The translations under genes and the position numbers were made by a program. Below are positions 4,477-57,005 of a stretch of DNA of 64,000 bases, piece after piece. This DNA comes from Vicinamibacterales bacterium (GTDB lineage Bacteria > Acidobacteriota > Vicinamibacteria > Vicinamibacterales > UBA823). The stretch lies in assembly GCA_965197385.1 (NCBI GenBank), contig CBDANA010000007.1, forward strand, positions 68,054 to 132,053, written 5' to 3'. The notes under the pieces are model-generated. The model was not told the origin of the DNA. It did no database searches and saw only the letters and a list, made by a program, of their open reading frames with translations. How positions within the stretch are numbered: position 1 is the first letter of the stretch; the number at the start of each line of letters is the position of its first letter.

Positions 4477-5688
4477 TTAGGCCGGACGGCCTGGCGGGGG
4501 CAACTCCACCTTGCGTGGCGGGTTGAAGAACGGCGTGCGGACGACCGTGGTCTCGACCTTGTGGCGCATCGCGTCGATCGTGAACTCGACGCGCAACCGG
4601 CTGCCGACCGCGGCATACTCCCGACTGACTGTGGCCAGCGCAATCAACTTCTTGAGCACCGGCGACCAGGTCATCGAGGTCGCTTTCCCGACCTGATGGC
4701 CGCCCTTGTAGACCGGCACCGCCTCGCGCGAGGCCACCAGCGGCGGCTGCGGCGGTAGGCCGGCCGCCTCGAACAACCGTTGAATCTCCGGCCAGTCGAG
4801 CTCGAGGCTGACAACCCGCCGGGCTGGACCGGTGCGCCGCTTTGCCCGCAGCGCCGCCTGCCCGACGAACCTGGCCTTGTCGAGGCTGACCAGCCGGTCC
4901 AGGCCCATTTCGAACGGCGAGTAGCGCTGCGACGGGATGAGCGCCTTCCGGCTGCTGAAGAAGTCCACCTCGATGAGGAGCAACCCGGCTTCGATCCGCG
5001 CCACGTCGAGCGCCAGCATGCCCGCCGGGCGGAGGCCGTAGTCCTGCCCGCGCTTCATCAGCGCATCCCAGACCTTCACGGCGTCCCGCCACCGCATCCA
5101 GATCTCGTAGCCCAGATCGCCGGTGTAGCCAGTGCGTGAGACATCGACCTGCACGCCCCGGATCGACCCGCTCGTCACATGGAAGTACTTCAGCGTTTCG
5201 ACGTCGAGATCCGCAACCTGCCGCAACAGGTCGGCCGACGTTGGGCCTTGCAGCGCAAGCGCGGCTACCTGCTCCGACACGTCGCGGATCGTCACGTCGA
5301 GGCCACGCGCGTTCTGCTGGAACCAGCGCAGGCTCGGGTTGGCCGCCGTCCAGCGGAAGCGGTCCTCGCCGAGGCGCAAGATCGTGCCGTCGTCGATCAC
5401 CTTGCCGTGCTCGTCGCACCAGGTGGTGTACGCGACCTGGCCGACGGCCAGCTTCGTGGCGTCGCGCGTGATCACGCGGTCCACGAACGCCGTCGCCTCG
5501 GCGCCGGTGATCAAGTACTTGTAGAGAGGCGAGACGTCGATGAGCGCCGCCGAGGTGCGGATGGCGGCGTATTCGTGCTCGTGATGAGTTTCATAGGCGC
5601 TGACGGCATAATAGCCGGACCACTCACGGTAGTTCAGGTTTTCGCAGAGTGCCAGCGTACGCCGGTGCACGGCTGATCCGATCGGCAT
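4477..5688 (-). CDS. aminomethyltransferase (GcvT/DmdA/dimethylglycine-oxidase-type folate-binding) family protein
   Basis: Family features include AALIDVSPLYKYLITG, TWCDEHGKVIDDG, LALQGP and GYTGDLGYEIW. The start is set at the ATG at 5688, preceded by AGGAG 6 nt upstream. Confidence 0.85.
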   Translation of the reverse strand: MPIGSAVHRRTLALCENLNYREWSGYYAVSAYETHHEHEYAAIRTSAALIDVSPLYKYLITGAEATAFVDRVITRDATKLAVGQVAYTTWCDEHGKVIDDGTILRLGEDRFRWTAANPSLRWFQQNARGLDVTIRDVSEQVAALALQGPTSADLLRQVADLDVETLKYFHVTSGSIRGVQVDVSRTGYTGDLGYEIWMRWRDAVKVWDALMKRGQDYGLRPAGMLALDVARIEAGLLLIEVDFFSSRKALIPSQRYSPFEMGLDRLVSLDKARFVGQAALRAKRRTGPARRVVSLELDWPEIQRLFEAAGLPPQPPLVASREAVPVYKGGHQVGKATSMTWSPVLKKLIALATVSREYAAVGSRLRVEFTIDAMRHKVETTVVRTPFFNPPRKVELPPPGRPA

Positions 5689-5752: not shown

Positions 5753-5925
5753 GCAGCCCGTGGTCAACGTCCGGCTGCATTCGACCGCCGATGCGATCCG
5801 CCCCGCGGCGTTACTCGTCGATCAAATGCTCCCGGCATGTTCCCTCCTCGTGCCTAGCCCCGGCCGACCGCGGCTTCGATTCGGCGGGGGGCTCTGTGCG
5901 ACACCTGACGTTGACCACGGGCTGC
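5753..5925. repeat. 19-bp perfect inverted repeat pair in a divergent intergenic region
   Basis: GCAGCCCGTGGTCAACGTC at 5753..5771 has its exact reverse complement at 5907..5925, with a 135-bp spacer. Confidence 0.8.
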
Positions 5926-5950
5926 AGGCGATCGCGTACAATGCGACTTC

Positions 5951-7576
5951 GTGACGCCTCACCGCGAGATGTCACCGCAAGCGATGATCGGCAGATACGA
6001 CGCGATCGTCATCGGCGGCGGGCACAACGGCCTGGTGACTGCGGCGTATCTGGCACGCGCCGGCAGGAAGACGCTGGTGCTGGAACGACGCCACGTCCTG
6101 GGCGGCGCCGCCGTCACGGAAGAAATTTTTCCCGGCTTCAAGTTCTCCGTCTGCTCCTACGTCGTCTCGCTGCTGCGTCCCGAGATCATCCGCGACCTCG
6201 AGCTGCCGCGCCACGGACTCGAAATTCTTCCGCTCGACGGCACGTTCACGCCGATGCCGGACGGCGACTACCTCTGGCGCGTCAACGATTCCGCGAAGAC
6301 CCGCCGGGACATTGCCAGGCATTCCCGCCGCGACGCCGAAGCCTACGAAGAATATGGGCGCGCGATGGTCGACATGGGCCGGTTCGTCAAGCCGATGCTC
6401 GAGATGACGCCGCCCGATCCGACGTCACGTGACCCGCGGGCGCTCATGCAATTGTTGTCAATCAGCAACCGCTTCCGGGCGCTCTCGCGACACGACCAGC
6501 ACACCCAGGTGCAGCTGGCTACGATGAGCGCCGTGGACTTTCTCGAGCAGTGGTTCGAGACCGACGTGCTGAAGGGTACGCTGGCAGCCTCCGGCATCAT
6601 CGGCACGTTCCTGGGCGTGCGGTCGCCCGGCACAGCCTACGTGCTGCTCCATCATTACATGGGGGAGATCGACGGCGCCTACCGGTCGTGGGGGCTGCCG
6701 CGCGGCGGCACCGGTGCCATCTCGAACGCCATCGCCGCGACGGCCCGCGAGGCGGGCGCCGAGATCCACACGGATGCACCGGTCGCGAAGGTCCTGCTCA
6801 ACAAGGAGCGCGCCGCCGGCGTCGTCCTGGAGAACGGCGACTACGTCTTCGCCGACACGATCGCGTCCAGCGTCGATCCCCGGCTGACGTTCCTCAAGAT
6901 GGTCGGCACGGAGCATCTGCCCGATGACTTCGTGGAGGACGTCCGCCGGTACAAGCTGCGCGGCTCGTCCGGAAAGGTCAACCTGGCGCTGGACGGACTG
7001 CCAGATTTCACGAGCCTGCCGGGCGCCGGCCGGCACCTGCGCGGGGCGATCTCGATTTCTCCGAGCGTCGACTACATGGAACGGGCGTACGACGACGCCA
7101 AGTACGGAGCCTTCTCGAAGCGGCCCTACGTGGATATGGTCATTCCGACCTTGAGCGATCCGTCGATGGCCCCACCGGGCAAGCACGTGCTGTCCTGCTT
7201 CGTGCAGTACGCGCCGTATCATCTGAGCGCGGGCAACTGGGACGACGAGCGGGAGCGGTTCGGCGACTGCGTCGTGGACACCATCGCCGAGCACGCGCCC
7301 AACCTGAAGGACCTCATCCTGCACCGGCAGGTCTTGACGCCGCTCGACCTCGAGCGCGAGTTCGGCCTAACCGAGGGCAACATCTTTCAAGGCGAGCTGA
7401 CGCTCGAACAGCTGTTCTTCCTGCGGCCGGTGCCCGGATGGGCGCGCTATCGCACGCCGGTTCGCGGGCTCTACCTGTGCGGCTCGGCGACCCACCCGGG
7501 CGGCGGCATCATGGGTGCCTCGGGCCGCAACGCCGCGAAGCGGATCTTGAAGGACTGGAAGCTTCCCGGCACGTGA
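5951..7576 (+). CDS. NAD(P)/FAD-dependent oxidoreductase, phytoene-desaturase (CrtI)/PYROXD2-like family, paralog 1
   Basis: YDAIVIGGGHNGLVTAAYLARAG dinucleotide fold, with C-terminal LYLCGSATHPGGGIMG. The true start is probably the ATG at 5969 or 5984 rather than the GTG at 5951. Confidence 0.85.
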   Translation: MTPHREMSPQAMIGRYDAIVIGGGHNGLVTAAYLARAGRKTLVLERRHVLGGAAVTEEIFPGFKFSVCSYVVSLLRPEIIRDLELPRHGLEILPLDGTFTPMPDGDYLWRVNDSAKTRRDIARHSRRDAEAYEEYGRAMVDMGRFVKPMLEMTPPDPTSRDPRALMQLLSISNRFRALSRHDQHTQVQLATMSAVDFLEQWFETDVLKGTLAASGIIGTFLGVRSPGTAYVLLHHYMGEIDGAYRSWGLPRGGTGAISNAIAATAREAGAEIHTDAPVAKVLLNKERAAGVVLENGDYVFADTIASSVDPRLTFLKMVGTEHLPDDFVEDVRRYKLRGSSGKVNLALDGLPDFTSLPGAGRHLRGAISISPSVDYMERAYDDAKYGAFSKRPYVDMVIPTLSDPSMAPPGKHVLSCFVQYAPYHLSAGNWDDERERFGDCVVDTIAEHAPNLKDLILHRQVLTPLDLEREFGLTEGNIFQGELTLEQLFFLRPVPGWARYRTPVRGLYLCGSATHPGGGIMGASGRNAAKRILKDWKLPGT

Positions 7577-9256: not shown

Positions 9257-10831
9257 ATGACAGAGGAGATGAAGATCACCTACGCGACGATGAGCGCCGA
9301 CCAGATGGACGAGCTCCATCGTGGCATCGACCAGGCGATCGAGCAGATCGCGCCGCAGATCGGCCAGACCTATCCGATGTACATCGACGGCGAGCCGATC
9401 GAGTCAGCGGAGCAGTTCGACGATCTGAGCCCGATCGACACCCGCACGGCCTTGGCGCGGTTCCAGACAGGCACCGCCAACCACGTGCGGGACGCGGTCC
9501 GCGCCGCCCGCGTGGCGGCGCCCGGCTGGAGCGCGCGCCCGTGGTCCGAGCGCGTCGCCATCGTTCGCAAGATCGGCGACGGCATCCGCGCGCGTCGCTG
9601 GGAGCTGGCCGCCTGGATGGGACACGAGACCGGCAAGAACCGACTCGAGTGCGTCGGTGACATCGAAGAAGCCGCGGATTTTATGTCGTACTACTGCGAT
9701 CAGATGGAGGCGCACGCCGGCTTCAGCCAGACGATGAACGCGCTGGGACCGAACGAGGAAAACACCAGCGTGATGCGGCCCCACGGTGTCTGGGCGGTCA
9801 TTTCCCCGTTCAACTTCCCGATGGCGCTGGCAGCCGGGCCGGCAGGTGGCGCGCTAGTTGCGGGCAATACCGTCGTGCTCAAACCGGCCACCGACACGCC
9901 GTGGCTCGGCGTCCGGCTCTACGACATCGTCACCGCAGCGGGTGTGCCGCCCGGTGTTTTCAACGTCGTCACCGGGCCGGGCGCTACGGTCGGCCAGGAG
10001 ATTGCCGAGCATCGGGGCATCGACGGCATCGTCTTCACCGGGTCGAAGGAGGTCGGCATGATGCTGCTCCGCGAGAACGGCAGCCGGCCGGCGCCGCGCC
10101 CGGTCATCACCGAGATGGGCGGCAAGAATCCCGCGCTGGTGATGCGCTCGGCGAACCTCGACAAGGCGACTGAGGGAGTTTGGCGCTCGGCATTCGGCGC
10201 GCAGGGTCAGAAGTGCTCCGCCTGCTCCCGCGTGTACGTCGCCTCGGAGATCCGCGACCAGTTCGTCGAGATGCTGGTCGAGAAGACCAAACGGATCAAG
10301 GTCGGAAACCCGATGGAACGGGACGTCTGGATGGGGCCGGTCATCAATGCGGCGGCCGTGAAGACCTACGAGCGCGCGATCGCTGAAGTGAAGCGCGACG
10401 GCGGACGCATCCTGACCGGCGGGCGCCGGATGATGGAGGAGCCGTTCCGCCACGGCTACTTCCTGGAGCCGACCGTCATCGACGGCCTGCCGAAAGACCA
10501 TCGGCTGTTCGTCGACGAGCTGTTCGTCCCGATCACCATCGTCGGCGACATCGACTCGTTCGACGAGGCGATCACGTTCGCCAACGACACCGAATATGGC
10601 CTGACCGCCGGTATCTTCACGGAGGACGATGACGAGATCGCCGCGTTCTTCGACCGGATCCAGGCGGGCGTCGTCTACGCCAATCGCCAGGCCGGCGCAA
10701 CAACCGGCGCCTGGCCCGGCATCAATCCCTTCGGCGGCTGGAAGGCCAGCGGCTCCTCCGGCCGAGGCGCCGGCGGCCCGCACTACGTCCAGCAGTTCCT
10801 GAGAGAACAGAGCCGGGTGCGGATCTCCTAG
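9257..10831 (+). CDS. aldehyde dehydrogenase family protein (1-pyrroline-5-carboxylate dehydrogenase-like)
   Basis: 524 aa with EMGGKNP and the catalytic-Cys motif FGAQGQKCSACSRVYV, typical of the P5CDH-type ALDH subfamily. Confidence 0.9.
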   Translation: MTEEMKITYATMSADQMDELHRGIDQAIEQIAPQIGQTYPMYIDGEPIESAEQFDDLSPIDTRTALARFQTGTANHVRDAVRAARVAAPGWSARPWSERVAIVRKIGDGIRARRWELAAWMGHETGKNRLECVGDIEEAADFMSYYCDQMEAHAGFSQTMNALGPNEENTSVMRPHGVWAVISPFNFPMALAAGPAGGALVAGNTVVLKPATDTPWLGVRLYDIVTAAGVPPGVFNVVTGPGATVGQEIAEHRGIDGIVFTGSKEVGMMLLRENGSRPAPRPVITEMGGKNPALVMRSANLDKATEGVWRSAFGAQGQKCSACSRVYVASEIRDQFVEMLVEKTKRIKVGNPMERDVWMGPVINAAAVKTYERAIAEVKRDGGRILTGGRRMMEEPFRHGYFLEPTVIDGLPKDHRLFVDELFVPITIVGDIDSFDEAITFANDTEYGLTAGIFTEDDDEIAAFFDRIQAGVVYANRQAGATTGAWPGINPFGGWKASGSSGRGAGGPHYVQQFLREQSRVRIS

Positions 10832-11138
10832 GCTCTGGGCTCTGGGCTCTGGGCTCTGGGCTCTGGGCTCTGGGCTCCGGGCTCCGGGCTCTGGGCTCTG
10901 GGCTCCGGGCTCCGGGCTCTGGGCTCTGGGCTCTGGGCTCTGGGCTCTGGGCTCTGGGCTCTGGGCTCTGGGCTCTGGGCTCTGGGCTCTGGGCTCTGGG
11001 CTCTGGGCTCTGGGCTCCGGGCTCCGGGCTCCGGGCTCCGGGCTCCGGGCTCCGGGCTCTGGGCTCTGGGCTCTGGGCTCCGGGCTCCGGGCTCCGGGCT
11101 CCGGGCTCTGGGCTCCGGGCTCTGGGCTCCGGGCTCTG
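10831..11138. repeat. tandem heptanucleotide array, 44 perfect units GGCTC[T/C]G
   Basis: Counted by hand; the phase is constant over 308 nt. Variant order is T6 C2 T2 C2 T14 C6 T3 C4 T C T C T. The first G is the last base of the ALDH TAG stop. Two degenerate units (GGCTTTC, GGCTCTT) follow. Confidence 0.95.
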
Positions 11139-11177
11139 GGCTTTCGGCTCTTGACCTCGGAGCCGTCATCTTCGTGC

Positions 11178-11198
11178 GAGAGCCGAGAGCCGAGAGCC
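11178..11198. repeat. inverted partner block (GAGAGCC)x3
   Basis: GAGAGCC GAGAGCC GAGAGCC is the near reverse complement of GGCTCTG (one mismatch per unit). It lies 39 nt after the main array and 13 nt before the LOG stop. Confidence 0.7.
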
Positions 11199-11211
11199 TC
11201 TACGCCCTCAG

Positions 11212-11790
11212 TCAGCCTTCCAGCTCGATCAGCTTCTCCACGACAGGCGGCGTGTAGGCGGCGAATCGATCGAGGAGCTGGCCGGGGTCGGCGCTTACGA
11301 GCAGCACGTCCCGGTGCTCGGACTGTAGGAAGCGCTCGGCGGCCGCGTGATCGAGAAACGCAAGCAGCCGGTCGAAATATCCACGCACGTTGAGCAGCCC
11401 GCACGGCTTGCGGTGCAGCCCGAGCTGGCCCCACGTCAGCGCCTCGCACAACTCGTCGAGGGTGCCGAACCCGCCGGGCATGGCGACGAAGCCGTCGGCG
11501 AGCTCGGCCAGGACCGCCTTGCGCTCGTGCATCGATTCCACGACGCGCAGGTCGGTCAGGCCGTTGTGCGCCGCCTCCTTTTCGACGAGCGCTCGAGGGA
11601 TCACGCCGACGACCTCCCCGCCCCGGGCCAGTACCTCGTCGGCCATCGCGCCCATCAGCCCAATCCGGGCGCCACCGTAGACCAGACCCAGCTTGCGGCG
11701 TACGATCGCGTTACCCATCGTGCGGGCCGTGTCCAGATACGCCCCATCGCCCCCAGAGCTCGAGCCGCAGAACACGCAAATGCGTTTCAT
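11212..11790 (-). CDS. LOG family protein (TIGR00730; cytokinin riboside 5'-monophosphate phosphoribohydrolase-like)
   Basis: 192 aa with ICVFCGSS, VYGGARIGLMG and the PGGFGTLDE motif. Confidence 0.9.
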   Translation of the reverse strand: MKRICVFCGSSSGGDGAYLDTARTMGNAIVRRKLGLVYGGARIGLMGAMADEVLARGGEVVGVIPRALVEKEAAHNGLTDLRVVESMHERKAVLAELADGFVAMPGGFGTLDELCEALTWGQLGLHRKPCGLLNVRGYFDRLLAFLDHAAAERFLQSEHRDVLLVSADPGQLLDRFAAYTPPVVEKLIELEG

Positions 11791-11792
11791 GG

Positions 11793-11834
11793 CCTCCTCT
11801 ACCTCCTACCTCCTGTCGCCTGCCTCCTGCCTCC
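11793..11834. repeat. heptamer repeat T[A/G]CCTCC (about 6 units)
   Basis: CCTCCTC TACCTCC TACCTCC TGTCGCC TGCCTCC TGCCTCC. On the minus strand these read as tandem GGAGG motifs directly upstream of the LOG ATG. Confidence 0.6.
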
Positions 11835-11849
11835 TATATTGTTACGTCA

Positions 11850-12974
11850 ATGTACCTGATCGATCTTCCCACCCCGCAGGTTCTCGTCGATCGCGCACGG
11901 CTCATGGCGAACATCGACCGGATGCAGGCAGCCGCGACGGCTGGCGGCATGGCGCTACGGCCGCACACGAAGACGCACAAAAGCCCGCGGATCGCCCGGT
12001 GGCAGCTCGAACGCGGCGCCGTCGGCCTCTGCTGCGCCAAGATTGGCGAGGCCGAGGTGTTCGCCGACGCCGGCATCACCGACATCCGCGTGCCCTACCC
12101 CATCAACCCGTCCAATGCCGCGCGGGTGCTCGCGCTGATGGATCGCGTCCAACTCTCGATCATCGTCGACCACGCCGAGGTTGCCGAGCAGTGGTCCGAG
12201 GCTATGACGACCGCCGGCACGCGGCTCGACGTCCTCGTCAAAGTGGACGTCGGCTACCACCGGTGCGGAATCTGGCCAGGCCCGACCAACGCCGTTCCAT
12301 TCCTCTCACGGGTCGCCGACCTGCCCGGCCTGCGCTTCCGCGGCCTGCTCAGCCATGCGGGACAGAGTTACGACGTGAAATCGAAGCCCGAGCTGATCGC
12401 CGTGGCCCGGGAGGAAGCTCGGATGCTCCGGGATCTCGCCGACGCGGCGCGGCACGCGGGCGTGGCCGTCGAAGAGATCAGCGTCGGTTCGACGGCGACG
12501 GCGCTCCTGAGTGCCGCCGAGCCGGGTCTCACCGAGCTGCGGCCGGGCAACTACGTCTACTACGACCGCAGCCAGGTGGCGATCGGATCGGCCGACGTGG
12601 ATGATTGCGCGCTTTCCGTCATGGCAACCGTTGTGAGCAAGCCGGCAACCGACCGGATCATCCTGGACTGCGGGAGCAAGACGCTCACCTCCGACACCGG
12701 CCGGGGCATGGTCCGCCCGAAGGGCTACGGCGCGGTCTTCGCCTCCCTCGACGCGGTCACCCCGGACGATTCGCTGGTGATCGAACGGTTGTCCGAGGAG
12801 CATGGCGTCGTGCAGGTGGAAAGCGGCGCGACGAGACTCGAGCCTGGCGATCGGGTCCGCGTCCTGCCGAATCACGCTTGCGTCGTGTCGAATCTGGTGG
12901 ATACGGTCTGTCTCGTGGAAGGTGAGACAATTGTCGAGCAGCTGCCGATCGAGGCGAGGGGGAAGATTACCTAG
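11850..12974 (+). CDS. alanine-racemase-fold PLP enzyme, D-threonine aldolase / D-serine dehydratase-like (DSD1) family
   Basis: 374 aa. The LRPHTKTHKSP motif (PLP lysine) is typical of the D-TA/DSD1 family. Confidence 0.8.
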   Translation: MYLIDLPTPQVLVDRARLMANIDRMQAAATAGGMALRPHTKTHKSPRIARWQLERGAVGLCCAKIGEAEVFADAGITDIRVPYPINPSNAARVLALMDRVQLSIIVDHAEVAEQWSEAMTTAGTRLDVLVKVDVGYHRCGIWPGPTNAVPFLSRVADLPGLRFRGLLSHAGQSYDVKSKPELIAVAREEARMLRDLADAARHAGVAVEEISVGSTATALLSAAEPGLTELRPGNYVYYDRSQVAIGSADVDDCALSVMATVVSKPATDRIILDCGSKTLTSDTGRGMVRPKGYGAVFASLDAVTPDDSLVIERLSEEHGVVQVESGATRLEPGDRVRVLPNHACVVSNLVDTVCLVEGETIVEQLPIEARGKIT

Positions 12975-16298: not shown

Positions 16299-16491
16299 AC
16301 GGATGCCCTCCTTGTATTAGAGCCGCGCACGCTCAACACGACCGCGGGTCGGTGTCGGCTTCTCAACCGGCACGTCGAACGCCATGAGCGGCACGGACGA
16401 CCGGACGCGGGTCGGTTGAGGAAGCACCAGCGACGTCGTTCATCGGACGAGTAGGTCTGCAACGACGACGGGGGGTGAGGGCGAGCCGGCG

Positions 16492-16533
16492 TCAGTCCTC
16501 AGTCCTCAGTCCTCAGTCATCAGTCGTCAGTGG
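16492..16533. repeat. heptamer repeat TCAGTCN x6
   Basis: TCAGTCC x3, TCAGTCA, TCAGTCG, TCAGTGG. The last unit contains the TGA stop of ORF 16527..16961. On the minus strand, TGA recurs every 7 nt and so falls in all three frames. Confidence 0.75.
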
Positions 16534-16961
16534 GTTCCCGGCGCGACCACGAGCGGCTGGCCGTTGACCGACAGGGACTGGACCGGCGTCGTCAGGAGCT
16601 CGCGGCCCGGCACCAGCAGCACCATCCGGAAGCCGAGCAGAATCCAGCCGAGCTTCACCAGCGTGCCCCGGCCCGACAACGTCGCGCCCAGGACGTGCAT
16701 GGCGGACTCTTCGGTGACGTGCTTGCCGTCGCTGGTGCCAATCCCAGCACACTTGGTGGGATTTTCCAGCCGCAGGGTATATGCCGTGTTACGGGTGCGC
16801 ATGACGAGCGTGTCCCCTGGCTGTAGTTGACGCGCGTCGATGCCTGGCGCAGCATCGCCATGCCCGATCAGGTCGTTGATGTCGAGATGATGGAGCGTCC
16901 GGACCGATCGACGTCGCGGAGGTACGAGCGAAATCTTGGCAATGGAAGTTGTCAACGGCAA
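16527..16961 (-). CDS. hypothetical protein
   Basis: 144-aa ORF with coding-like composition. No family recognised. Confidence 0.45.
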   Translation of the reverse strand: MPLTTSIAKISLVPPRRRSVRTLHHLDINDLIGHGDAAPGIDARQLQPGDTLVMRTRNTAYTLRLENPTKCAGIGTSDGKHVTEESAMHVLGATLSGRGTLVKLGWILLGFRMVLLVPGRELLTTPVQSLSVNGQPLVVAPGTH

Positions 16962-17162: not shown

Positions 17163-18356
17163 ATGGCAATTGCTGTAGCCTTAGCTGAAGGAGTCGTTGC
17201 GATGCTGTCTAAACCTCTTGCCCTCGGCGCCCTGGTCCTGGCCGCACTGGTTGCGGTGGGCACAGGCGCCTACCTAGGCGTTCGCCAGAACGATGCCAAT
17301 CTGCAGTTTGCGGCGAAGGTCAGCCCGGAGCGCCCAGCCGATGACGAAACGGCCGAGCCGCTGGCCATCGTCGAAGAAACGGAAACGGTGATCGACGAGT
17401 CCCCGGTGGAGATCGAACCGAAACCGGCCGCGCCTGTGGCGAGGGCCGAGCCGGCGCCGCCGGCCGTTGCCGTGTCAGAACCGGAACCGCTCCCGGCTGA
17501 GCCAGTCGAACCGGCCCCGTCGGTTGCGGTGCCGGCACCGAGACCCGAACTAGTTCAAGCACCAGTCGAAGCCCCAGTCGAGGCAATCGACCGGGGCTTC
17601 GAGGTCGACCAAATTTTCGAAGAAGACGAGATCGGCGGCGTAGCCTCCGTCGAGCCGATTTCCAGCCCGGCGCCGGCGGACGACGCGAACCCGTGGCGGC
17701 AACTCGAGGCGCCGTGGCCCTCTGATGACGATGATGATGATACTGATGCCGGGACCGTCGTCCAGCGAGCGCCGGCTGACACCGATGCCCCGTGGTCGAA
17801 CGTGGCGGACGGCGCCGAACCGGAGCTGCGGTTCGACGAGCTCGTCGTCGCCGCCGATTCGGTGATCGGCCTGCAAATCGAGACACGTGTGAGCAGCGAG
17901 GATGCGCGCGTCGAGGATTCGGTCGACGCCCGGGTGACGCGCGATGTCCTGGTCGACGACCGGGTCGCCGTGCCCGCGGGCGCTCGGCTGCATGGCTCGG
18001 TCGTGCTGGTCGAGCGCGGCGGCCGGATGAGCAAGGGGGCGAGAATCGGCGTCCGGTTCCACACGCTGGTGATGGCGGACAGCACCGAATTGGCGATCGT
18101 CACCGAGACGATCTACCGCGAGGGTGAGGGCCAGGGCGGCCGAAGAGCCAAGGCGATCGGCGGGGCGGCGGTGACTGGCGCCATTCTCGGCGCCATCTTC
18201 GGCGGCAGGCGCGGTGCCGTCCTCGGCGGAAGCGTGGGCGCCGCCGGGAGCACGGCGGGCGTCATAACCGGCGACCGGAACCGCACGACGCTGCTGCCCG
18301 GCATGACGTTCACGATGCGTCTGCTACAGCCTGTCACCGTGCTCGTCGATTGGTAG
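17163..18356 (+). CDS. membrane-anchored hypothetical protein with Pro/Glu-rich linker and C-terminal beta domain plus glycine-zipper segment
   Basis: N-terminal TM helix (LALGALVLAALVAVGTGAYL), a PE/PA-rich linker and a DDDDDD run. The C-terminal region is loosely reminiscent of TrbI/VirB10-type beta domains. A GxxxG-rich stretch follows (GGAAVTGAILGAIFGGRRGAVLGGSVGAAG). An alternative start is at 17202. Confidence 0.6.
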   Translation: MAIAVALAEGVVAMLSKPLALGALVLAALVAVGTGAYLGVRQNDANLQFAAKVSPERPADDETAEPLAIVEETETVIDESPVEIEPKPAAPVARAEPAPPAVAVSEPEPLPAEPVEPAPSVAVPAPRPELVQAPVEAPVEAIDRGFEVDQIFEEDEIGGVASVEPISSPAPADDANPWRQLEAPWPSDDDDDDTDAGTVVQRAPADTDAPWSNVADGAEPELRFDELVVAADSVIGLQIETRVSSEDARVEDSVDARVTRDVLVDDRVAVPAGARLHGSVVLVERGGRMSKGARIGVRFHTLVMADSTELAIVTETIYREGEGQGGRRAKAIGGAAVTGAILGAIFGGRRGAVLGGSVGAAGSTAGVITGDRNRTTLLPGMTFTMRLLQPVTVLVDW

Positions 18357-18385
18357 TGACCTGCCCCCCAGGGTTGTGCCACTGC

Positions 18386-18698
18386 TTATGAGAGAGCTGG
18401 ACTCATTTCTGAGCTCCCAAGCGCTGCCGGCATGATCGCGTCCGGGGCCGGTGGGCGGTAGCCCCGCGCACGGTGCGGCCGCACCGTGTTGTCCTGCCGC
18501 CGCCATCGCTCGATCAAGATCCTGGCTTCCGTCAGGGGATAGAAGATCTCACGGTCCAGGAGTTCGTCGCGGAACTGGCCGTTAAACGATTCGATGTACC
18601 CATTCTCCCATGGGCTCCCCGGCTCGATGAACAGCGTCTGCACCTGTAGGGCCGCGAGCCAGAGTCGGATGAGCTCGGCCGTGAACTCCGGGCCGTTG
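18386..18698 (-). pseudogene. IS3-family transposase, C-terminal (integrase-core) fragment
   Basis: DNGPEFTAELIRLWLAALQVQTLFIEPGSPWENGYIESFNGQFRDELLDREIFY...RWRRQDNTVRPH is the classic rve-domain C-terminus. Confidence 0.88.
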
Positions 18699-18784
18699 TC
18701 GAGGATATGGAGATGACAGGAAGGGCGCCCTCACCCCATCTCCGCATAGTCTCCGTGCAATCACGACAAAGCAGGGAGGCCAGC

Positions 18785-20041
18785 ATGAGACAGGATGAGA
18801 GGCACCACACGTTGGACGACATCTTCGTGGGCATCGATCTGGCGACCCGTCAGCACCAGGTGGTCGTCCTCGATGGGCAGGGACACCGCCTCACGAGCTT
18901 CAAGGTTTCGCATTCTCGAGAGGGGCTGCGCGAGCTCGTGGAGCGCTGCTCGGCCCGTCGAGTCGGCCGGGGACGAGGTACGGTGCACTTCGCGTTCGAG
19001 GCCACCGGACACGTGTGGGAGGCGGTTGGTGCATTCTTTGAGCAGCGCGCGCTTCGGTATCACGTCGTCAATCCGCTCGCGACCTTCCGGGTGCGCGAGG
19101 CTCGGCAGATGGGACGCGACAAGCGAGACCTGACCGACGCAGAGCAGATCGCGCAGCTGCTGCGCACGGGGGTCGTGACCAAGTGCCAGCTCTTGCCCGC
19201 TCGATACATGCAACTGCGGCGAGCCTGGGGCGAGTATCAGCGTCTACGCTGCGAGCGCGCCCGCCTCAAGACCCTGCTCGTGCATCAGCTCTACGGCGTG
19301 TTTCCGGAAATCGTCGGCGAGTGGAAAACCGTCACGGCGCCTGGGTGCCTCGCGGTGCTGCGGGCGGGCTTGCCCCCGCAGGACATCGCGATGCTGACGA
19401 AGCCGGCCTTCATCCGAGTCGTGCAAGAGCACCGGCGGGGACGGCGGATGTGGCGCTTCAAGATTGAGCAAGTCTGGGAGAAGGCCGGGAGGACGGTGGC
19501 GGCGCTCCATGGGCATGAGGCCGCCATGCGTGAAGTGACTCGGCTGGTCGAGCGTCTCGACTTCGTCGGCGACCAACTCGATCGCGTCGCGGGCGAGCTC
19601 CAGACCGACCTCGAGGGGTTTGAGGAGCCGACGTATCTCGCGCCGTTGCCGGGGACCGGGTGGGTCACGATCGCCGGGCTACTCGCCGAGATCGGCCCCT
19701 TTCACCGATTCCGGCACGGCCGGCAGTTAGTGAAGCTCGCCGGCCTGCAGCCGTCGAGACGGGAAAGCGGCCAGCACGCGGGCCGCACGCCGATCAGCAA
19801 GCGCGGCCGGGCGCAGCTGCGCGCCGTGGTCTACATGGCCACGCTGTCGTCCATACGCCATACCCGGCGCCTGAGAGCCCACTACGAGCGCCTCACGCAG
19901 CGCGTCACGCGGCCCCTGCCCCCCATGCAAGCGATCGGGGCCTGCATGACCAAGCTGCTGCACTACGCGTTCGCCGTCGTCCACAACCAAACGGCGTTCG
20001 ACGTCAACCACGTGTGGAGGGATGATCCGATCGCCGCCTAG
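18785..20041 (+). CDS. IS110-family transposase/recombinase (element A; short 5' end, long 3' tail, IS1111-like layout)
   Basis: FVGIDLA...FEATGHVW...DLTDAEQIA DEDD-type N-domain, with C-terminal LPGTGWVTIAGLLAEIG...SGQHAGRTPISKRGRAQLR. The ATG at 18785 is preceded by AGGGAGG. Confidence 0.9.
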   Translation: MRQDERHHTLDDIFVGIDLATRQHQVVVLDGQGHRLTSFKVSHSREGLRELVERCSARRVGRGRGTVHFAFEATGHVWEAVGAFFEQRALRYHVVNPLATFRVREARQMGRDKRDLTDAEQIAQLLRTGVVTKCQLLPARYMQLRRAWGEYQRLRCERARLKTLLVHQLYGVFPEIVGEWKTVTAPGCLAVLRAGLPPQDIAMLTKPAFIRVVQEHRRGRRMWRFKIEQVWEKAGRTVAALHGHEAAMREVTRLVERLDFVGDQLDRVAGELQTDLEGFEEPTYLAPLPGTGWVTIAGLLAEIGPFHRFRHGRQLVKLAGLQPSRRESGQHAGRTPISKRGRAQLRAVVYMATLSSIRHTRRLRAHYERLTQRVTRPLPPMQAIGACMTKLLHYAFAVVHNQTAFDVNHVWRDDPIAA

Positions 20042-20274
20042 AGACCTGAGGCTCCGGCTCCGGCCGGAGAGGAGGCCATGCCGACCGTTGTCCTGCGCCC
20101 TTCGAGTCGAAGACAGCTCGACGCCCGTCCGCCAGGCACCCTCCGCTCCTCGGGTATGAGTCCGGATGACGCACGATGGGCCGGCTCCAGCGAGCCCGTG
20201 CCCGTATCTGTCCCTCGATTGGACAGCCCAACGGCGCCGAGAGCCTTGACGCCCCTATATGTCAAGACGGTCGT
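20042..20274. ncRNA. candidate IS110/IS1111-type non-coding RNA (bridge/seek RNA) region; also holds the junction of the two elements
   Basis: This 233-bp tract between two convergent recombinase genes has no credible ORF. It contains GC-rich palindromes such as CTCCGGCCGGAG. The assignment rests on the known family architecture only. Confidence 0.3.
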
Positions 20275-21360
20275 TCAGGCCGCCAAGTCTGCGGCTTGGC
20301 GCGCTCGGTAGTCTGCCATCACGCGCTGAAAGATCTCGCGGGCGAGAAAGCGTTTAAGACAGCGGATGATCTCCCGTTTGGGCCGCCCTTCAGCGGTGCG
20401 TCGTTCGACGTAGTTGAGGGTTGGTGTGTGGAACCGCATCCGCACGATGACGGCCCGGTGGAGCGCGGCGTTGGCCTGGCGATGACCGCCGCGGTAGAGG
20501 CGGTGGCGCCCCGTCGTCATCCCGGACGAAGCCGGGATGGGGCAGGCCCCGCAAAGCTTGGCGAAGGCGGCTTCAGAATGAATCCGATCGGGGGTGTCGC
20601 CAAAGATGATCAGCAGTTCGGCGGCGGTGTCGGCACCGATGCCGAAGCCCTCACGCAGCGTCGGTGAGGTCTGGGTGGTGAGTCGACTCACGTGACGGTC
20701 GTGGTCCACGATTTCGACGGAGAGAGCGAACCAGCGACGGGCGAGCGCCCGGAGGGTATGTTTCGCCGAGGCGGTCGGCGTATCGATCGTGCCGCAGCGC
20801 CATCCGCGGCAGCGTTTGAGGAGCGCCTGGTCGGCGAGCGGGTTGAGGGTCTCTCGCAGCGCGGGCGGCGCGGTGACGACGATCTGCTTCAGCGTGATCA
20901 TCGCCGAGGTGCGGGCTTTGACCGCCGTCCGGCGCGCGACTTTGAGGTGGCGCATCATCTCGACCGCTCCGTCCGCGGTCTTCGGGATGGCGGTCGATTG
21001 GCCCGCCAGAACCGACCGCGCGGCGGTCTCGGCATCCACGGGGTCGGACTTCCCGGCGATTCGACGTGTGCGCCGGTCGCCTCGGTTCACTTCGAGCACC
21101 TGGTGCCCGGCTCGCCGGACCGCGCGAGTGAGTCCCGCCCCGTAGCTGCCGGTGCCCTCGATGCCGAACGCGGCGATGCGGCCGTGACGCTCGGCCCAGG
21201 TGATCAGCTGTTGGTAGCCGTCTGAGTCGGCGGCACACGATCGATCGTCGAGGCGGACCCCCCTCGTGTCGATCGCCACGGCCACGTGGACGTGCTTGTG
21301 GGTGTCCACGCCGACGATCACCTTCCGCGCGTCAGGCTGGATAGTCCTGTGGTTCGTCAC
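20275..21360 (-). CDS. IS110-family transposase/recombinase (element B; long 5' non-coding end, IS110-like layout)
   Basis: VIVGVDTHKHVHVAVAID...FGIEGTGSYGAGL...KSDPVDAE N-domain, with C-terminal SSGMTTGRHRLYRGGHRQANAALH. The GTG start is preceded by GAGGAGG. Confidence 0.9.
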   Translation of the reverse strand: MTNHRTIQPDARKVIVGVDTHKHVHVAVAIDTRGVRLDDRSCAADSDGYQQLITWAERHGRIAAFGIEGTGSYGAGLTRAVRRAGHQVLEVNRGDRRTRRIAGKSDPVDAETAARSVLAGQSTAIPKTADGAVEMMRHLKVARRTAVKARTSAMITLKQIVVTAPPALRETLNPLADQALLKRCRGWRCGTIDTPTASAKHTLRALARRWFALSVEIVDHDRHVSRLTTQTSPTLREGFGIGADTAAELLIIFGDTPDRIHSEAAFAKLCGACPIPASSGMTTGRHRLYRGGHRQANAALHRAVIVRMRFHTPTLNYVERRTAEGRPKREIIRCLKRFLAREIFQRVMADYRARQAADLAA

Positions 21361-21636
21361 CGGGTGGCCTCCTCGGGTGCTGGTGCGTCGGCCGGATGGG
21401 CGGACAGGACTGTGATGGGTCGACGTTGCAGCAGGCCCCTATTGGGTCACGGCCCATCCGGTCAGACGGGTTGCCGTGTCAATCGCCGACGGACGATGAC
21501 CGACAGTTCAGTAGCCAGGACCGTAGGTCAGTCAACTTGTGGGTCAGGCCAGCGCCCACCGGCACCCACCGGTGTCACTGAGCAACCCCGACAGGCAGGG
21601 GAATCATGCTCACAGACAACTTGGTCATAGCACGCG
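21361..21636 (-). ncRNA. candidate bridge-RNA-encoding left end of IS110 element B
   Basis: 276-bp non-coding tract between the recombinase start and the IS3 junction. It contains a perfect 10-bp long-range pairing, CCGGATGGGC (21392..21401) with GCCCATCCGG (21452..21461). Confidence 0.35.
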
Positions 21637-22462
21637 GACCGCAGGTGCGCCGGGACGCCGTGGGTGACGAAACGCTGGGCCAGCGTCTCGAGTACCTCCA
21701 TCGATCGCACCCACCGGGCGACCACGATTGCCAAGCATTCCCGCGAATACTCCTCGACGATGGTGAGGATCTTCAGCGGCCGGCCGGCCTGCGTCCGGTC
21801 CGCCACGAAGTCATACGCCCAGACGTGGTGGCGATACGCGGGGCGGCGGCGAATGCACGAGCCATCCGCGAGCCACCGCCGGCCCCGGTTCGGCTGTTGC
21901 TGCGGCACTTTCAGCCCCTGCTCGTCGCCACAGCCGCTCCACGCGCTTGTGATGCACCGCCCACCCGTCCCCACGTAAGCGCCCGGTGATGCGCCGAGAG
22001 CCATACCGCCCATCCCGCGTCGCCAATGCGATCATCCGAGCCCCCAGGCGCGGCTCGTCCACCGGCACCATGGCCTGATCCCGAGGGGTCGACCGCGCGT
22101 GGCCGATCACGCGACACGCCCGCCTCTCCGACACGCGCAACTGGCGGCGGACGTGCGCCCCCGCCTGCCGGCGTCGGGGCGGGCTCAGAAGTTTCCCGAG
22201 GGCACCTCTTTGAGAATCGCGTGGTCGAGCGCCTGGTCCCCACCAGCTTCTTCAGCTGGGTATTCTCTCGCTCGAGGGCCTGCAGCCGCTTGGCCTGGTC
22301 GAGCCGCAAGCCGCCGTATTCCTTCCGCCCCCGAGAGTACGTCTGCTCGCTGATCCCGAGCGTCTTACAAACCTGCGGCGTCCGCAGGCCTCGGCCCAGC
22401 TCCACTGCCGCCTGCCGAAGCTTCGTGATGATCTGTGCCGTGCTGGACCGCTTTCTGGGCAT
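21637..22462 (-). pseudogene. IS3-family transposase, OrfA and N-terminal OrfB fragment, multiply frameshifted
   Basis: MPRKRSSTAQIITKLRQAAVELG...ISEQTYSRGRKEYGGLRLDQAKRLQALERENTQLKKLV is the OrfA HTH/leucine zipper. OrfB pieces (RVSERRACRVIGHARST; LKVPQQQPNRGRRWLADGS...VWAYDFV...ECLAIVV) lie in three frames, which implies at least two non-programmed frameshifts. Confidence 0.85.
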
Positions 22463-22558
22463 CTTGCCGCCTGCTGCAGCGCCCGAATGCTAACGCTCGG
22501 GCTGGTTCAGTTCCAGGGGGCAAGGTCACTAGCCGGGAGGTCAGGAACCCGTCTCCCG

Positions 22559-24719: not shown

Positions 24720-24765
24720 TAATGAAGACCGAAGTCGGCGCCCGATGGCCCGAGCAACCGGATAT

Positions 24766-24807
24766 TGAAATTTGAAATTTGAAATTTGAGAATTGAGACG
24801 GGAGACC
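24766..24807. repeat. AT-rich heptamer repeat TTGAAAT x3 plus 3 degenerate units
   Basis: TTGAAAT TTGAAAT TTGAAAT TTGAGAA TTGAGAC GGGAGAC, ending 2 nt before the ATG of the OMP gene. Confidence 0.7.
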
Positions 24808-34920: not shown

Positions 34921-35859
34921 ATGAAGATCGTGATTCCCGGAGGATCGGGGTTTCTTGGCCGGGCGCTCTGTGACGCGCTCCTGCAGGACGGGTACGAGGT
35001 CGTCATCCTGACCCGGGCCCTGGACCCCGGCGTCGTCGTCCACGAAGCGGGGACCGGCTTGCCTGGGCTCAGCAACGCTGGCTGGAAGCCGGACGGCACC
35101 GACGGCGTGGGCCTGTGGGCCAAGTTGCTCGACGGCGCCGACGCGATCGTGAACCTCGCAGGCGAGCCGATCGTCGCGCGGCGCTGGTCGGCCGCCCAGA
35201 AAACGAGAATTCGCGACAGCCGTGTGCTCGGGACCCGGTCGATCGTCGGCGCCATCCAGGCCGTGACACATTCGCCAGCTGTCCTCGTCAACGCGTCGGC
35301 GATCGGCATCTACGGCGACCGCGGAGACGAAGAACTGACGGAGGCCTCGGCCGCCGGCGACGACTTCTTGGCCCAGACCTGTCTCGACTGGGAGGCCGAA
35401 GCGCGGGAGGCGGAGGCACACGTGGGGCGCCTCGCCATTCTGCGATGCGGGATCGCCCTCGAGGCAGACGGCGGAGCCCTGGTGAAGATGCTGCCGCCGT
35501 TCAAGGCTTTCGTCGGCGGGCCGCTGGGCACCGGCCAACAGTACATGTCGTGGATCCACCGGGCCGACTGGGTGGACCTGATGCGATGGGTCCTCGCCAC
35601 GAAAACGGCGTCCGGCATCTTCAACGCCACGGCGCCGGCTCCGGTGACGAACGCCGCGTTCTCGAAGGCGCTTGGCCGGGCGCTCGGCCGCCCGAGCCTG
35701 CTGCCGGCGCCGGCGTTCGCGTTGCGCCTGGCGCTGGGCGAAATGGCCGACGCATTGCTCCTGGGTGGACAGCGGGTGCTACCCTCCCGTGCGCAGGAGC
35801 TCGGGTTCAACTTTCGGTTCTCGACGATCGACCACGCGCTCGTCTCGATCCTGCATTGA
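34921..35859 (+). CDS. TIGR01777-family (YfcH-like) NAD-dependent epimerase/dehydratase with DUF1731 C-terminus
   Basis: MKIVIPGGSGFLGRAL Rossmann N-terminus and a C-terminal ...LLGGQRVLPSRAQELGFNFRF tail typical of the family. Confidence 0.88.
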   Translation: MKIVIPGGSGFLGRALCDALLQDGYEVVILTRALDPGVVVHEAGTGLPGLSNAGWKPDGTDGVGLWAKLLDGADAIVNLAGEPIVARRWSAAQKTRIRDSRVLGTRSIVGAIQAVTHSPAVLVNASAIGIYGDRGDEELTEASAAGDDFLAQTCLDWEAEAREAEAHVGRLAILRCGIALEADGGALVKMLPPFKAFVGGPLGTGQQYMSWIHRADWVDLMRWVLATKTASGIFNATAPAPVTNAAFSKALGRALGRPSLLPAPAFALRLALGEMADALLLGGQRVLPSRAQELGFNFRFSTIDHALVSILH

Positions 35860-35865
35860 GGAACA

Positions 35866-35893
35866 GGCGTTCGGCCCTCGGCTTTCGGCTGAG
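35866..35893. repeat. heptamer block GGCNNTN x4 after a stop codon
   Basis: GGCGTTC GGCCCTC GGCTTTC GGCTGAG, starting 7 nt after the TGA of the TIGR01777 gene. Confidence 0.55.
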
Positions 35894-35951: not shown

Positions 35952-35972
35952 CAGAGCCGAACGCCGAGAGTC
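35952..35972. repeat. inverted heptamer block (CAGAGCC GAACGCC GAGAGTC)
   Basis: Its reverse complement is GACTCTC GGCGTTC GGCTCTG, the same family as 35866..35893 and as the 10831 array. It ends 2 nt before the stop of the convergent PIG-L gene. Confidence 0.55.

Positions 35973-38634: not shown

Positions 38635-38638
<4 letters not shown>
35975..38638 (-). CDS. large secreted PIG-L/LmbE-family deacetylase domain protein (887 aa)
   Basis: Signal peptide and the PIG-L motif MMATAHPDDENNALLALL...ATRGDGGQNEIG. The long C-terminal region ends in a GATase1/ThuA-like segment (YDIIITGERAY...GGTVIVQYNK). Confidence 0.85.
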
Positions 38639-52636: not shown

Positions 52637-53341
52637 ATGGGCGACGGCGAACCGATCCTTCCAGGCCGCGGCGAAAGCGACTACGAGCGCTATCCGCGCA
52701 CCGACGAGCTGCTCGCGCTACAGAAGTGGCCGGCGGAGATGACCTCGCGCGACGAACTGCTCTTCCAGACAGTGCACCAGGCCGCCGAGCTGTGGAGGAA
52801 GCTCGCCTGCTTCGAGCTGGAGGAAGCGACCGTCCTCGTCGAGCGCCAGGATCTCGCGCCGGCGCTCAGGCTGCTTCGCCGCGCCGTCACCTGCCTCGTC
52901 TACATCACGAATCAACTGCACATTCTCGAACACATGTCGCCCTGGGAGTACCACGACGTGCGGAAGGCACTCGGCCACGGCAGCGGGTTCGACTCGCCGG
53001 GTTTCACCCGGCTCGGGCAGAGCTCGCCGAAGCTCGGTGTGGCCTTCCAACGAACGCTGGAAGCGCGCGGCCTCGATCTCGTGACGTTCTACCATCGCGG
53101 CCGGGAGTTCGAGGAGCTCTATCAATTGGCCGAGCTGCTCGTGGACTGGGACGAGCAGGTCATCCTTTTCCTGCGGCACCACCTGAAGGTGCTCGAACGG
53201 ATCATCGGCGGCCACGTCGTCGGCACGCAGGGTACGCCGGTCGAGGTGCTCGCCGAGCGCGTCGATCACCAGTTCTTTCCGGAGCTCTGGAAGGTGCGGA
53301 ACGAGCTGACGGCCCAAGCGGACGAGCGAGAAGGGCTCTAG
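52637..53341 (+). CDS. tryptophan 2,3-dioxygenase family protein (short form)
   Basis: DYERY..TDELLALQK, HQAAELW and GHGSGFDSPGF (compare GSGFQS) are TDO-like motifs. The start is set at MGDGEPIL. Confidence 0.75.
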   Translation: MGDGEPILPGRGESDYERYPRTDELLALQKWPAEMTSRDELLFQTVHQAAELWRKLACFELEEATVLVERQDLAPALRLLRRAVTCLVYITNQLHILEHMSPWEYHDVRKALGHGSGFDSPGFTRLGQSSPKLGVAFQRTLEARGLDLVTFYHRGREFEELYQLAELLVDWDEQVILFLRHHLKVLERIIGGHVVGTQGTPVEVLAERVDHQFFPELWKVRNELTAQADEREGL

Positions 53342-53354
53342 GCTCTGGGCTAGC
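53334..53354. repeat. heptamer block GGCTCTA GGCTCTG GGCTAGC spanning a TAG stop codon
   Basis: Same unit and same stop-codon register (cTAG|GCTCTGGGCT) as at the ALDH stop at 10829..10831. Confidence 0.6.
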
Positions 53355-53440: not shown

Positions 53441-53468
53441 GAGAAGCGAGAGCCAAGAGCCGAGAGAC
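53441..53468. repeat. inverted heptamer block GAGAAGC GAGAGCC AAGAGCC GAGAGAC
   Basis: Same family and orientation as 11178..11198. It lies 21 nt before the stop of the convergent thioesterase gene. Confidence 0.6.
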
Positions 53469-56320: not shown

Positions 56321-56361
56321 CTATCGATAGCAGAATAGTATTACGAGTAGTCTATCGATAG
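56321..56361. promoter_or_regulatory. two identical 10-bp palindromes CTATCGATAG, candidate VapB operator
   Basis: Located at 56321..56330 (adjacent to the vapB Shine-Dalgarno sequence) and 56352..56361, with a 21-bp AT-rich spacer. Confidence 0.55.
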
Positions 56362-56956: not shown

Positions 56957-57005
56957 CCGTTCCTTTCTCCTGCCTCCTGCCTCCTAACTCCTGATTTCTG
57001 TATTC
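56957..57005. repeat. heptamer repeat family TGCCTCC (degenerate, about 7 units)
   Basis: CCGTTCC TTTCTCC TGCCTCC TGCCTCC TAACTCC TGATTTC TGTATTC, with the same core unit as 11793..11834. Confidence 0.5.

Follow-up and report, generated by a model that had tools for sequence, protein, structure and literature searches.

A copy-number-variable heptanucleotide array between convergent ALDH and LOG genes of a Vicinamibacterales bacterium is an expanded member of a stop-proximal inverted-repeat family

How did a run of 44 heptanucleotides come to lie between the stop codons of two convergent genes, and what, if anything, does it do there? The question is raised by a stretch of 64,000 nucleotides from a Vicinamibacterales bacterium (contig CBDANA010000007.1, positions 68,054 to 132,053; this whole stretch, with a base composition of 67% G+C, is called the window here), in which an array of GGCTCYG units separates an aldehyde dehydrogenase (ALDH) gene from a LOG-family gene and is followed by a short block of inverted units (Table 1). 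A recount reproduced what an earlier reading of this DNA, made from the letters alone (the sequence-only reading), had reported: 44 exact units in one constant 7-nt phase, two unit variants only, GGCTCTG (T) and GGCTCCG (C), and the run lengths T6 C2 T2 C2 T14 C6 T3 C4 T C T C T. The open reading frame (ORF) of the ALDH gene likewise confirmed that the TAG stop codon ends, and unit 1 begins, with one and the same G at base 10831. The array units are exact and arranged head to tail, which places the array among heptanucleotide simple sequence repeats (SSRs; units of 1–9 nt); Tandem Repeats Finder returned 45.9 copies with 95% matches and a score of 516, and the pattern GGCTCTNGGCTCTNGGCTC (three units, up to three mismatches) matched 51 times in the window vs 0.41 times expected from shuffles. 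The description of the inverted side had to be amended. Three inverted GAGAGCC units are present as claimed, but the 39-nt spacer placed before them (11139–11177) includes 14 nt of two degenerate units, GGCTTTC and GGCTCTT, and the true spacer measures 25 nt. The block does lie just before the LOG stop, but it is the complement of GGCTCTC, not of GGCTCTG, and agrees with the array unit at six of seven positions.

Comparison with close relatives revealed that the length of this array is not fixed. Exact-protein look-ups led to three further metagenome assemblies of the same species, from different samples and with flanks ~99% identical to those of the window, and these carry 14 units (T7 C T2 C T C T; L122/L131), ~8 units with one 9-nt unit among them (L133) and ~6 units with one 5-nt unit among them (L132) in place of the 44 of the window; the anchor-to-anchor lengths of the four alleles are 369, 159, 119 and 108 nt. 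The 5′ run of T units, the 3′ end (C T followed by GGCTTTC GGCTCTT) and an inner hairpin are common to all four. The right arm also varies, with three or four units among strains, and the four-unit arm of L132 shifts the pairing register. Because whole-unit differences separate four ~99% identical assemblies, the locus is a real multi-allelic heptanucleotide variable-number tandem repeat (VNTR) that ranges from ~6 to 44 copies among near-identical strains, irregular only in the single odd unit that two alleles contain; the idea of a hypervariable locus, raised in the sequence-only reading, was thus borne out. Alignment of ~21 kb to sister strain L122 showed five small indels, four of which are whole-unit changes at heptamer arrays: 30 units at the 44-unit array, one CCTGCCT unit at 11819, two TCAGTCC units at 16492 and two TTGAAAT units at 24764. 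All four heptamer arrays shared with L122 therefore differ in copy number. The sole small indel outside such arrays is a 3-nt coding indel, GAC at 17733, in a GAT/GAC run of gene 17202–18356.

These alleles bear on the explanation to which we give least credence, namely that the array arose in assembly, encodes a repetitive protein or switches ALDH or LOG by phase variation. Long arrays are error-prone, many of the arrays found in species genomes (see below) lie at contig ends, and two alleles contain a 5-nt or a 9-nt unit; against an artefact, four independent assemblies carry the array at the same place and share the patterns at its ends. The lack of stop codons on either strand was confirmed here, together with the artefactual ORFs that cross the array on the minus strand (10828–11169, 113 aa; 9854–11449, 531 aa); in favor of a coding role stands a weak Pfam match of the 113-aa ORF with its SPEPRAQ repeats. 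The region matched is low-complexity sequence of a herpesvirus glycoprotein (28.8 bits vs a cut-off of 26.4), and the allele lengths do not keep one frame, so this candidate was rejected. The ALDH stop lies inside the palindrome CCTAGG (10826–10831), in which TAG closes frames on both strands at the array edge, and for this reason the 113-aa ORF ends exactly there. As for a switch, SSRs of contingency loci lie within an ORF, between promoter elements or in a 5′ leader; the array is downstream of both convergent genes and therefore cannot shift a reading frame or alter promoter spacing.

The array is not alone in the window. Three inverted-arm elements were found in the 64 kb, every one at a convergent junction and with arms 0–23 nt from the stop codons, and, read in the direction of each gene, the arm that follows the stop is always GGCTCTN. 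Among convergent spacers longer than 100 nt, three of four hold such an element; in the fourth, which separates two IS110 genes, a weak version was seen, GGCTCCG...GAGAGCC. No spacer is related to that of another copy, and the copies also differ in arm length and unit variant. The two sites that the sequence-only reading had linked to the array, at 35866 and 53334, proved to be real short members of this GGCTCTN family, and with three elements in the window its view of the 44-unit array as an expanded member of a dispersed repeat family holds. The short arms of the element at 53334 are stable, with identical copy number in two other strains.

A scan of GTDB with one genome per species, requiring at least four consecutive GGCTCYG units, returned at least 120 loci, and the figures given for this set hold among the matches listed. 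These come from Actinomycetota, Acidobacteriota, Gemmatimonadota, Chloroflexota, Myxococcota and Pseudomonadota, with Streptomyces, Nonomuraea, Actinoplanes, Curtobacterium, Vicinamibacteria, other Acidobacteriota, Gemmatimonadales, Thermomicrobiales, Myxococcales, Lysobacteraceae, Burkholderia and a Pseudomonas as hosts. Arrays contain 4–106 units, and their frequency declines about geometrically with length, leaving a long tail. About 80% are intergenic, with 26 at convergent, 39 at tandem and 3 at divergent junctions (p = 2e-4 vs 1:2:1). In the 47 cases in which the gene on the 5′ side lies on the G-rich strand, the array starts at a median of 22 nt after the stop codon, and at co-directional junctions the median distances are 16 nt after the stop vs 120 nt before the next start. 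Convergent junctions showed no orientation bias (15 vs 11), and no GTDB locus among these matches shares the flanks of the window array. Stop codons standing directly before sense-oriented arrays were TAG in 13 of 23 cases, compared with 30% of all called genes (a post hoc comparison, p = 0.007); a single G-to-A change converts CTGGGC to CTAGGC, as at 53339–53341 of the window. In short-read assemblies, many arrays (L014, L055, L063, L065, L066, L090 and L111) come to within a few bases of where the contig ends, and L134, a low-coverage long-read contig, stops inside LOG ~100 nt short of the array. Repeats of this kind probably break assemblies, and the copy numbers at contig ends are lower bounds.

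Stop-proximity was closer still when the inverted architecture itself was searched for. A metagenome scan yielded at least 122 elements; among the matches listed, to which all of the following numbers refer, arms usually have 2–4 units and enclose mutually unrelated spacers of 2–42 nt. Of 64 elements with a classified context, 41 were tandem, 16 convergent and 7 divergent. The 41 tandem elements begin at a median of 5 nt after the upstream stop codon and end 27 nt before the next start, with 34 nearer the stop and 5 nearer the start. The arms are complementary at their variable positions: position 7 of the left arm and position 1 of the right arm complement each other in 76 of 122 elements vs 33.5 expected (the maximum in 10,000 permutations was 50), with all four Watson–Crick combinations present, and positions 6 and 2 do so in 111 of 122 vs 78 expected. 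The reverse arrangement, with NAGAGCC first, was the rarer one in the GTDB set (2 vs 7 among the matches listed).

At the ALDH–LOG junction, folding predictions agree with arms that pair. The last array units together with GGCTTTC GGCTCTT are predicted to pair with the GAGAGCC block in a stem of ~22 bp, in all four alleles and with z-scores of −3.4 to −5.3. The unit that faces GGCTTTC is GAAAGCC (an A-U pair) in the three sister strains and GAGAGCC (a G.U pair) in the window. The G-rich strand of the array also folds on itself, as RNA with a predicted −218 kcal/mol through G-C and G.U pairs, and as DNA, for eight units, with −8.9 kcal/mol (z −5.9) vs −1.2 kcal/mol for the C-rich strand.

Starting from the observed repeat, its polymorphism, its family, its stop-adjacent placement and the complementary arms, we favor, with a probability of roughly 0.6, the reading that the locus is a hypermutable VNTR expanded from the outer left-arm unit of a 3′-end hairpin that lacks a U-tract. 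The basic element consists of about three GGCTCTN units, a short non-conserved spacer and about three inverted NAGAGCC units a few bases from the stop codon of the upstream gene, or, at convergent junctions, close to the stops of both genes; its two arms are predicted to pair into the ~22-bp hairpin, which, by analogy with repetitive extragenic palindromic (REP) elements and bidirectional terminators, might act in RNA as a U-tract-less terminator or a barrier to 3′ exonucleases. Being built of tandem repeats, each arm would be prone to slipped-strand mispairing, which may drive arm expansion, and because the G-rich GGCTCYG strand is quasi-self-complementary, slipped loops would be stabilized. 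One arm would thereby have run away to 44 copies here, compared with ~6 to 14 in relatives, and the surplus of 30 or more copies is most likely a by-product that is neutral or nearly so.

The terminator or insulator role that the sequence-only reading had proposed is plausible, in that family members stand right after stop codons, are depleted between divergent genes and have complementary arms. REP elements and bidirectional terminators are 3′ hairpins that terminate transcription or block 3′ exonucleases. Like these and the bacterial interspersed mosaic elements (BIMEs), GGCTCTN elements are imperfect palindromes in 3′ intergenic DNA that recur, here at three junctions in 64 kb, and could fold in transcripts from either strand; they differ from REPs, BIMEs and bidirectional terminators in that they have arms of tandem heptamers in variable number and unrelated spacers, and lack a U-tract. 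The locus thus offers one half of an intrinsic terminator, the predicted G+C-rich hairpin soon after the stop, and not the other, a U run right after the stem. A consensus scan of 10300–12300 for promoters and terminators detected neither, and an Rfam search of the same interval at a permissive E-value gave chance-level matches only, with mir-769 matched to the repeat itself.

Several observations weigh against the hairpin-derived VNTR. No T-run follows the arms in the window, and in the metagenome elements at least four T within 8 nt occur at only 27 of 240 arm flanks among the matches listed, which sets the element apart from canonical intrinsic terminators. Folding of the elements at 35866 and 53334 was not superior to that of shuffles (z −1.5 and +0.1). 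For foreign loci, gene contexts were derived from a crude gene finder based on G+C content at third codon positions (GC3), although it reproduces the called genes of the window, and the exact figure of 44 units rests on one assembly. The complementarity of the arms could stem from palindrome-generating mutation (template switching) and not from selection for pairing. Finally, the element is not conserved at the ALDH–LOG junction of more distant relatives. In L123/L124, whose ALDH is 98% identical, the spacer (4576–4716) is unrelated to that of the window up to both stop codons, and the same is true in L125 (ALDH 88% identical; spacer 4585–4807); neither carries a heptamer array there, and relatives with 84% (L126/L127) and 79% (L128) ALDH identity contain different heptamer arrays at the orthologous junction (Table 1). 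Any function must accordingly be replaceable, as the element is not kept. The L123 spacer holds a different hairpin, GCGCAGGCC-TTGA-GGCCTGCG, and transposase genes lie upstream of ALDH in this relative.

Much of the above could also be explained by a purely neutral microsatellite family, which we regard as a serious if unlikely alternative: a lineage-specific bias of replication or repair would generate the arrays through slippage and hairpin-templated strand switching, and they would be tolerated only next to stop codons, with promoters, ribosome-binding sites and coding DNA intolerant of them. The decay of GTDB copy numbers from four units without a preferred length (among the matches listed) fits this well, as do the fast turnover that leaves the array absent at the same junction of close relatives, the equally ready variation of heptamer arrays of unrelated units, the depletion of arrays only where promoters lie and the failure of two of the three window elements to fold better than shuffles. 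Tolerance alone, however, does not predict that elements should start ~5 nt after a stop codon with at least 27 nt free on the opposite side (34 vs 5 among the matches listed), nor that GGCTCTN should be reused at several junctions of one genome and across phyla, nor the strong complementarity of the arms at variable positions; and the inner hairpin is kept in four of four alleles while the outer array varies. These points move us toward the hairpin-derived VNTR.

Comparison with known heptamer repeats revealed how much of this pattern has precedents. As cited by Rehm et al. 2015 (PMC4692102), a 2007 survey found heptamer SSRs to be over-represented in many bacteria and repeat runs to be longer where genomes are large and exceed 60% G+C, and the same paper records a suggested link between the 7-nt size and the stretch of DNA that occupies the active site of the polymerase. 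The GGGAATC heptamer of Xanthomonas is biased toward intergenic DNA near ORF ends, is depleted at divergent ORFs, differs in length between species and occurs in 70–75 inverted ('convergent') pairs per genome; the authors could assign this repeat no function. Its counterpart in Nostoc is GGGGAYT (PMC4692102). What the sequence-only reading implied, that heptamer arrays are a cyanobacterial peculiarity undescribed in high-GC bacteria, is not supported in view of GGGAATC in high-GC Xanthomonas (PMC4692102), and the occurrence of GGCTCYG arrays at the at least 120 GTDB loci across high-GC phyla also counters such a restriction. An excess of heptamers, their inverted pairing and variation in length are thus already known from Xanthomonas and Nostoc; added here are the allele series, the covariation of the arms, the 5-nt proximity to stop codons, and a new unit in phyla for which no description was found. 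Literature searches with the unit sequence returned mammalian primers only, and no paper on heptamer tandem repeats in the intergenic DNA of Acidobacteria was found.

The GGCTCTN family shares with the Xanthomonas and Nostoc heptamers the 7-nt unit, a G tract at the unit junction, the intergenic and stop-proximal position on the sense strand, rarity between divergent ORFs, inverted pairs and length variation. It differs in the unit itself, in its hosts (Acidobacteriota and Gemmatimonadota, with the bare unit in many Actinomycetota) and in array size, with 44 units here and up to 106 among the GTDB matches listed compared with a reported maximum of 26. Since position and context match the G-quadruplex (G4)-forming heptamers of PMC4692102, including intergenic location, divergent depletion, inverted pairs and length variation, the array might be a quadruplex (and i-motif) repeat that stalls RNA or DNA polymerases between convergent genes. 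Read in its other phase, (GGGCTCY)44 does contain a G3 tract every 7 nt (G3N4), and hence the four or more G3 tracts with short loops that define a G4 heptamer. Such a role nevertheless appears improbable: the minimum-energy structure predicted by ViennaRNA remains the hairpin with the G-quadruplex option enabled, and position 7 is mostly C or T in the metagenome elements (among the matches listed) and C in the right arm of this locus. Most other members, with C, T or A at position 7, thus have GG tracts only, and G3 is not what the GGCTCTN family conserves.

The recurrence of the same arms at several junctions of one genome, in imperfect palindromes at intergenic 3′ sites, recalls a mobile palindrome akin to REPs or to MITEs (miniature transposable elements with inverted repeats), with the arms as terminal inverted repeats recognized by a transposase such as RAYT. 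We consider this very improbable. Because the spacers are unrelated, mobility of this kind is unsupported; arm length and unit variant also differ between copies, neither a conserved REP-type 5′ tetranucleotide nor a target duplication could be seen, and the transposases noted are of the IS110 and rve types only, no search aimed at RAYT having been made.

Other heptamer systems offer partial parallels. In Beggiatoaceae, Cyanobacteria and Bacteroidetes, TAACTGA arrays are mostly located immediately upstream of start codons (MacGregor 2015, PMC4679880). With these and with the short tandemly repeated repetitive (STRR) sequences of cyanobacteria the arrays described here have in common tandem intergenic heptamers at many loci, up to tens of copies and several unit types per genome; unlike TAACTGA arrays, GGCTCTN elements follow stop codons and form inverted pairs, and sequences and taxa differ. 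Assignment to the STRRs, which belong to heterocystous cyanobacteria, was rejected, as the unit is GGCTCYG and the host is related to Acidobacteriota/Vicinamibacterales MAGs. In Haemophilus influenzae, a heptanucleotide SSR between promoter and start codon tunes expression of hmw1A and hmw2A in a rheostat type of phase variation (PMC8262952, PMC12721329). The unit size and the change of copy number between close strains, by slippage there and probably here, are shared, whereas the 44-unit array stands downstream of both of its genes; the closer parallel in the window is provided by arrays that bear Shine–Dalgarno motifs.

Heptamer arrays of other sequence are indeed a general feature of this DNA. 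Among periods of 7 to 12, the window has arrays at period 7 only; eight of the nine stand between genes, in DNA of which 90% is coding. Once the target arrays had been masked, the loci from Acidobacteriota and Gemmatimonadota still contained 14 and 11 arrays of period 7, respectively, vs at most 6 of any other period, a comparison biased by the selection of loci for carrying a heptamer array; in the remaining, mostly actinomycete loci, period 7 was not dominant. Non-self-pairing arrays (TCAGTCC, CCTGCCT) vary in copy number as well, and hairpin formation is therefore not needed for variation, yet the self-pairing of GGCTCYG may explain why it reaches the largest sizes. The array in the 5′ leader of LOG carries a Shine–Dalgarno core in each unit and has two, three or four units among strains, and so could tune translation. 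Heptamers with the Shine–Dalgarno core GGAGG were also observed in other 5′ leaders: (GGAGGCA)n at 56966–56986, with one core per unit, 65 nt before the start of gene 56352–56900, and (AGGAGTT/AGGAGCA)n immediately before the ALDH ATG of a relative; the sites in relatives are L126 2953–2990 and L123 5318–5337.

It is tempting to see in the GGCTCTN-armed hairpins a cross-phylum class, so far without a name, of 3′-end elements close to stop codons in high-GC soil bacteria, and in these hairpins plus the Shine–Dalgarno heptamer leaders a genome-wide set of copy-number 'rheostats' of Acidobacteriota, a broad proposal that we consider quite unlikely to hold in full. If it were true, the hairpins would be U-tract-independent terminators or RNA-stability barriers with a strength tunable by slippage, and because the elements start ~5 nt after the stop codon, they might be partly unwound by the terminating ribosome. 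Should the hairpins mark 3′ ends without a U-tract, they would help to define termination in high-GC phyla, where canonical terminators are scarce. More immediately, the locus is a concrete multi-allelic marker for strain typing in an uncultured soil lineage of Acidobacteriota, and arrays of this kind yield false ORFs and probably break short-read assemblies. The heptamer-repeat phenomenon with stop-adjacent inverted pairs reaches Acidobacteriota and Gemmatimonadota, with a different unit and covarying arms.

Table 1 Positions of the array, its flanking genes and related features (window coordinates unless a contig of a relative is named)
Feature	Position	Strand	Details
ALDH gene	9257–10831	+	ORF; PF00171; TAG stop 10829–10831
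Heptamer array	10831–11138	+	44 exact GGCTC[T/C]G units; copy-number-variable outer left arm; other phase (GGGCTCY)n
Degenerate units GGCTTTC, GGCTCTT	11139–11152	+	Inner stable left arm; identical in four strains
Spacer/loop region	11153–11177	.	25 nt; small 5-bp stem in all folds
Right arm (GAGAGCC)x3	11178–11198	-	(GGCTCTC)x3 in LOG sense; 13 nt past LOG stop
LOG-family gene, convergent to ALDH	11212–11790	-	Lysine_decarbox PF03641; stop 11212–11214 (TCA on +)
LOG 5′-leader VNTR	11799–11836	-	(AGGAGGC/AGGAGGT)n right before ATG; Shine–Dalgarno core per unit; 2, 3 or 4 CCTGCCT units
(GGACTGA)n VNTR	16490–16531	-	Starts on TGA stop of gene 16527–16961; 2–4 perfect units among strains
rve_3 integrase fragment	18386–18643	-	Within 18357–22529
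IS110-family transposase gene	18785–20041	+	Within 18357–22529; convergent with the next
IS110-family transposase gene	20275–21360	-	Within 18357–22529
(TTGAAAT)x4 VNTR	24764–24791	+	Just upstream of gene start; two units more than sister strain
Second element, left arm GGCGTTC GGCCCTC GGCTTTC GGCTGAG	35866–35893		6 nt after TGA of gene 34921–35859
Second element, right arm CAGAGCC GAACGCC GAGAGTC	35952–35972		2 nt before stop of gene 35975–38638 (-)
Third element, left arm GGCTCTA GGCTCTG GGCTAGC	53334–53354		Tryptophan dioxygenase TAG 53339–53341 spans junction of units 1 and 2
Third element, right arm GAGAGCC AAGAGCC GAGAGAC	53448–53468		21 nt before stop of 4HBT gene 53490–53960 (-)
(TAGTCGT-like)x5.6 array, L126 and L127	4582–4623 (L126)		Starts on ALDH TAG; LOG absent there
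(CAGCNNT)x4.4 array, L128	4595–4625		Starts ~10 nt after TAG

Among the flanking genes, ALDH is named 1-pyrroline-5-carboxylate dehydrogenase in several sources, and its closest named relatives are metagenome-assembled genomes (MAGs) of Acidobacteria/Vicinamibacterales; exact-protein look-ups for LOG and for gene 34921–35859 found nothing on record. A 4.17-kb segment (18357–22529), which includes the IS110-family and rve_3 genes of Table 1, is missing from sister strain L122. The (GGACTGA)n array supplies TGA in every frame and resembles the TAACTGA of Beggiatoaceae and cyanobacteria at five of seven positions, and the TTGAAAT array, which sits in a window of 67% G+C, is predicted to self-pair as DNA. 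Further heptamer variants were seen in two MAGs of the GTDB set: an Acidobacteriota MAG (L076, ~4840–4990) has a long mixed GGCTCTC/GGCTCTG array, and a Gemmatimonadales MAG (L116, ~5860–6120) has an inverted pair, (GTGGGCC)n ... (CATGGCC)n, beside its GGCTCTG array.

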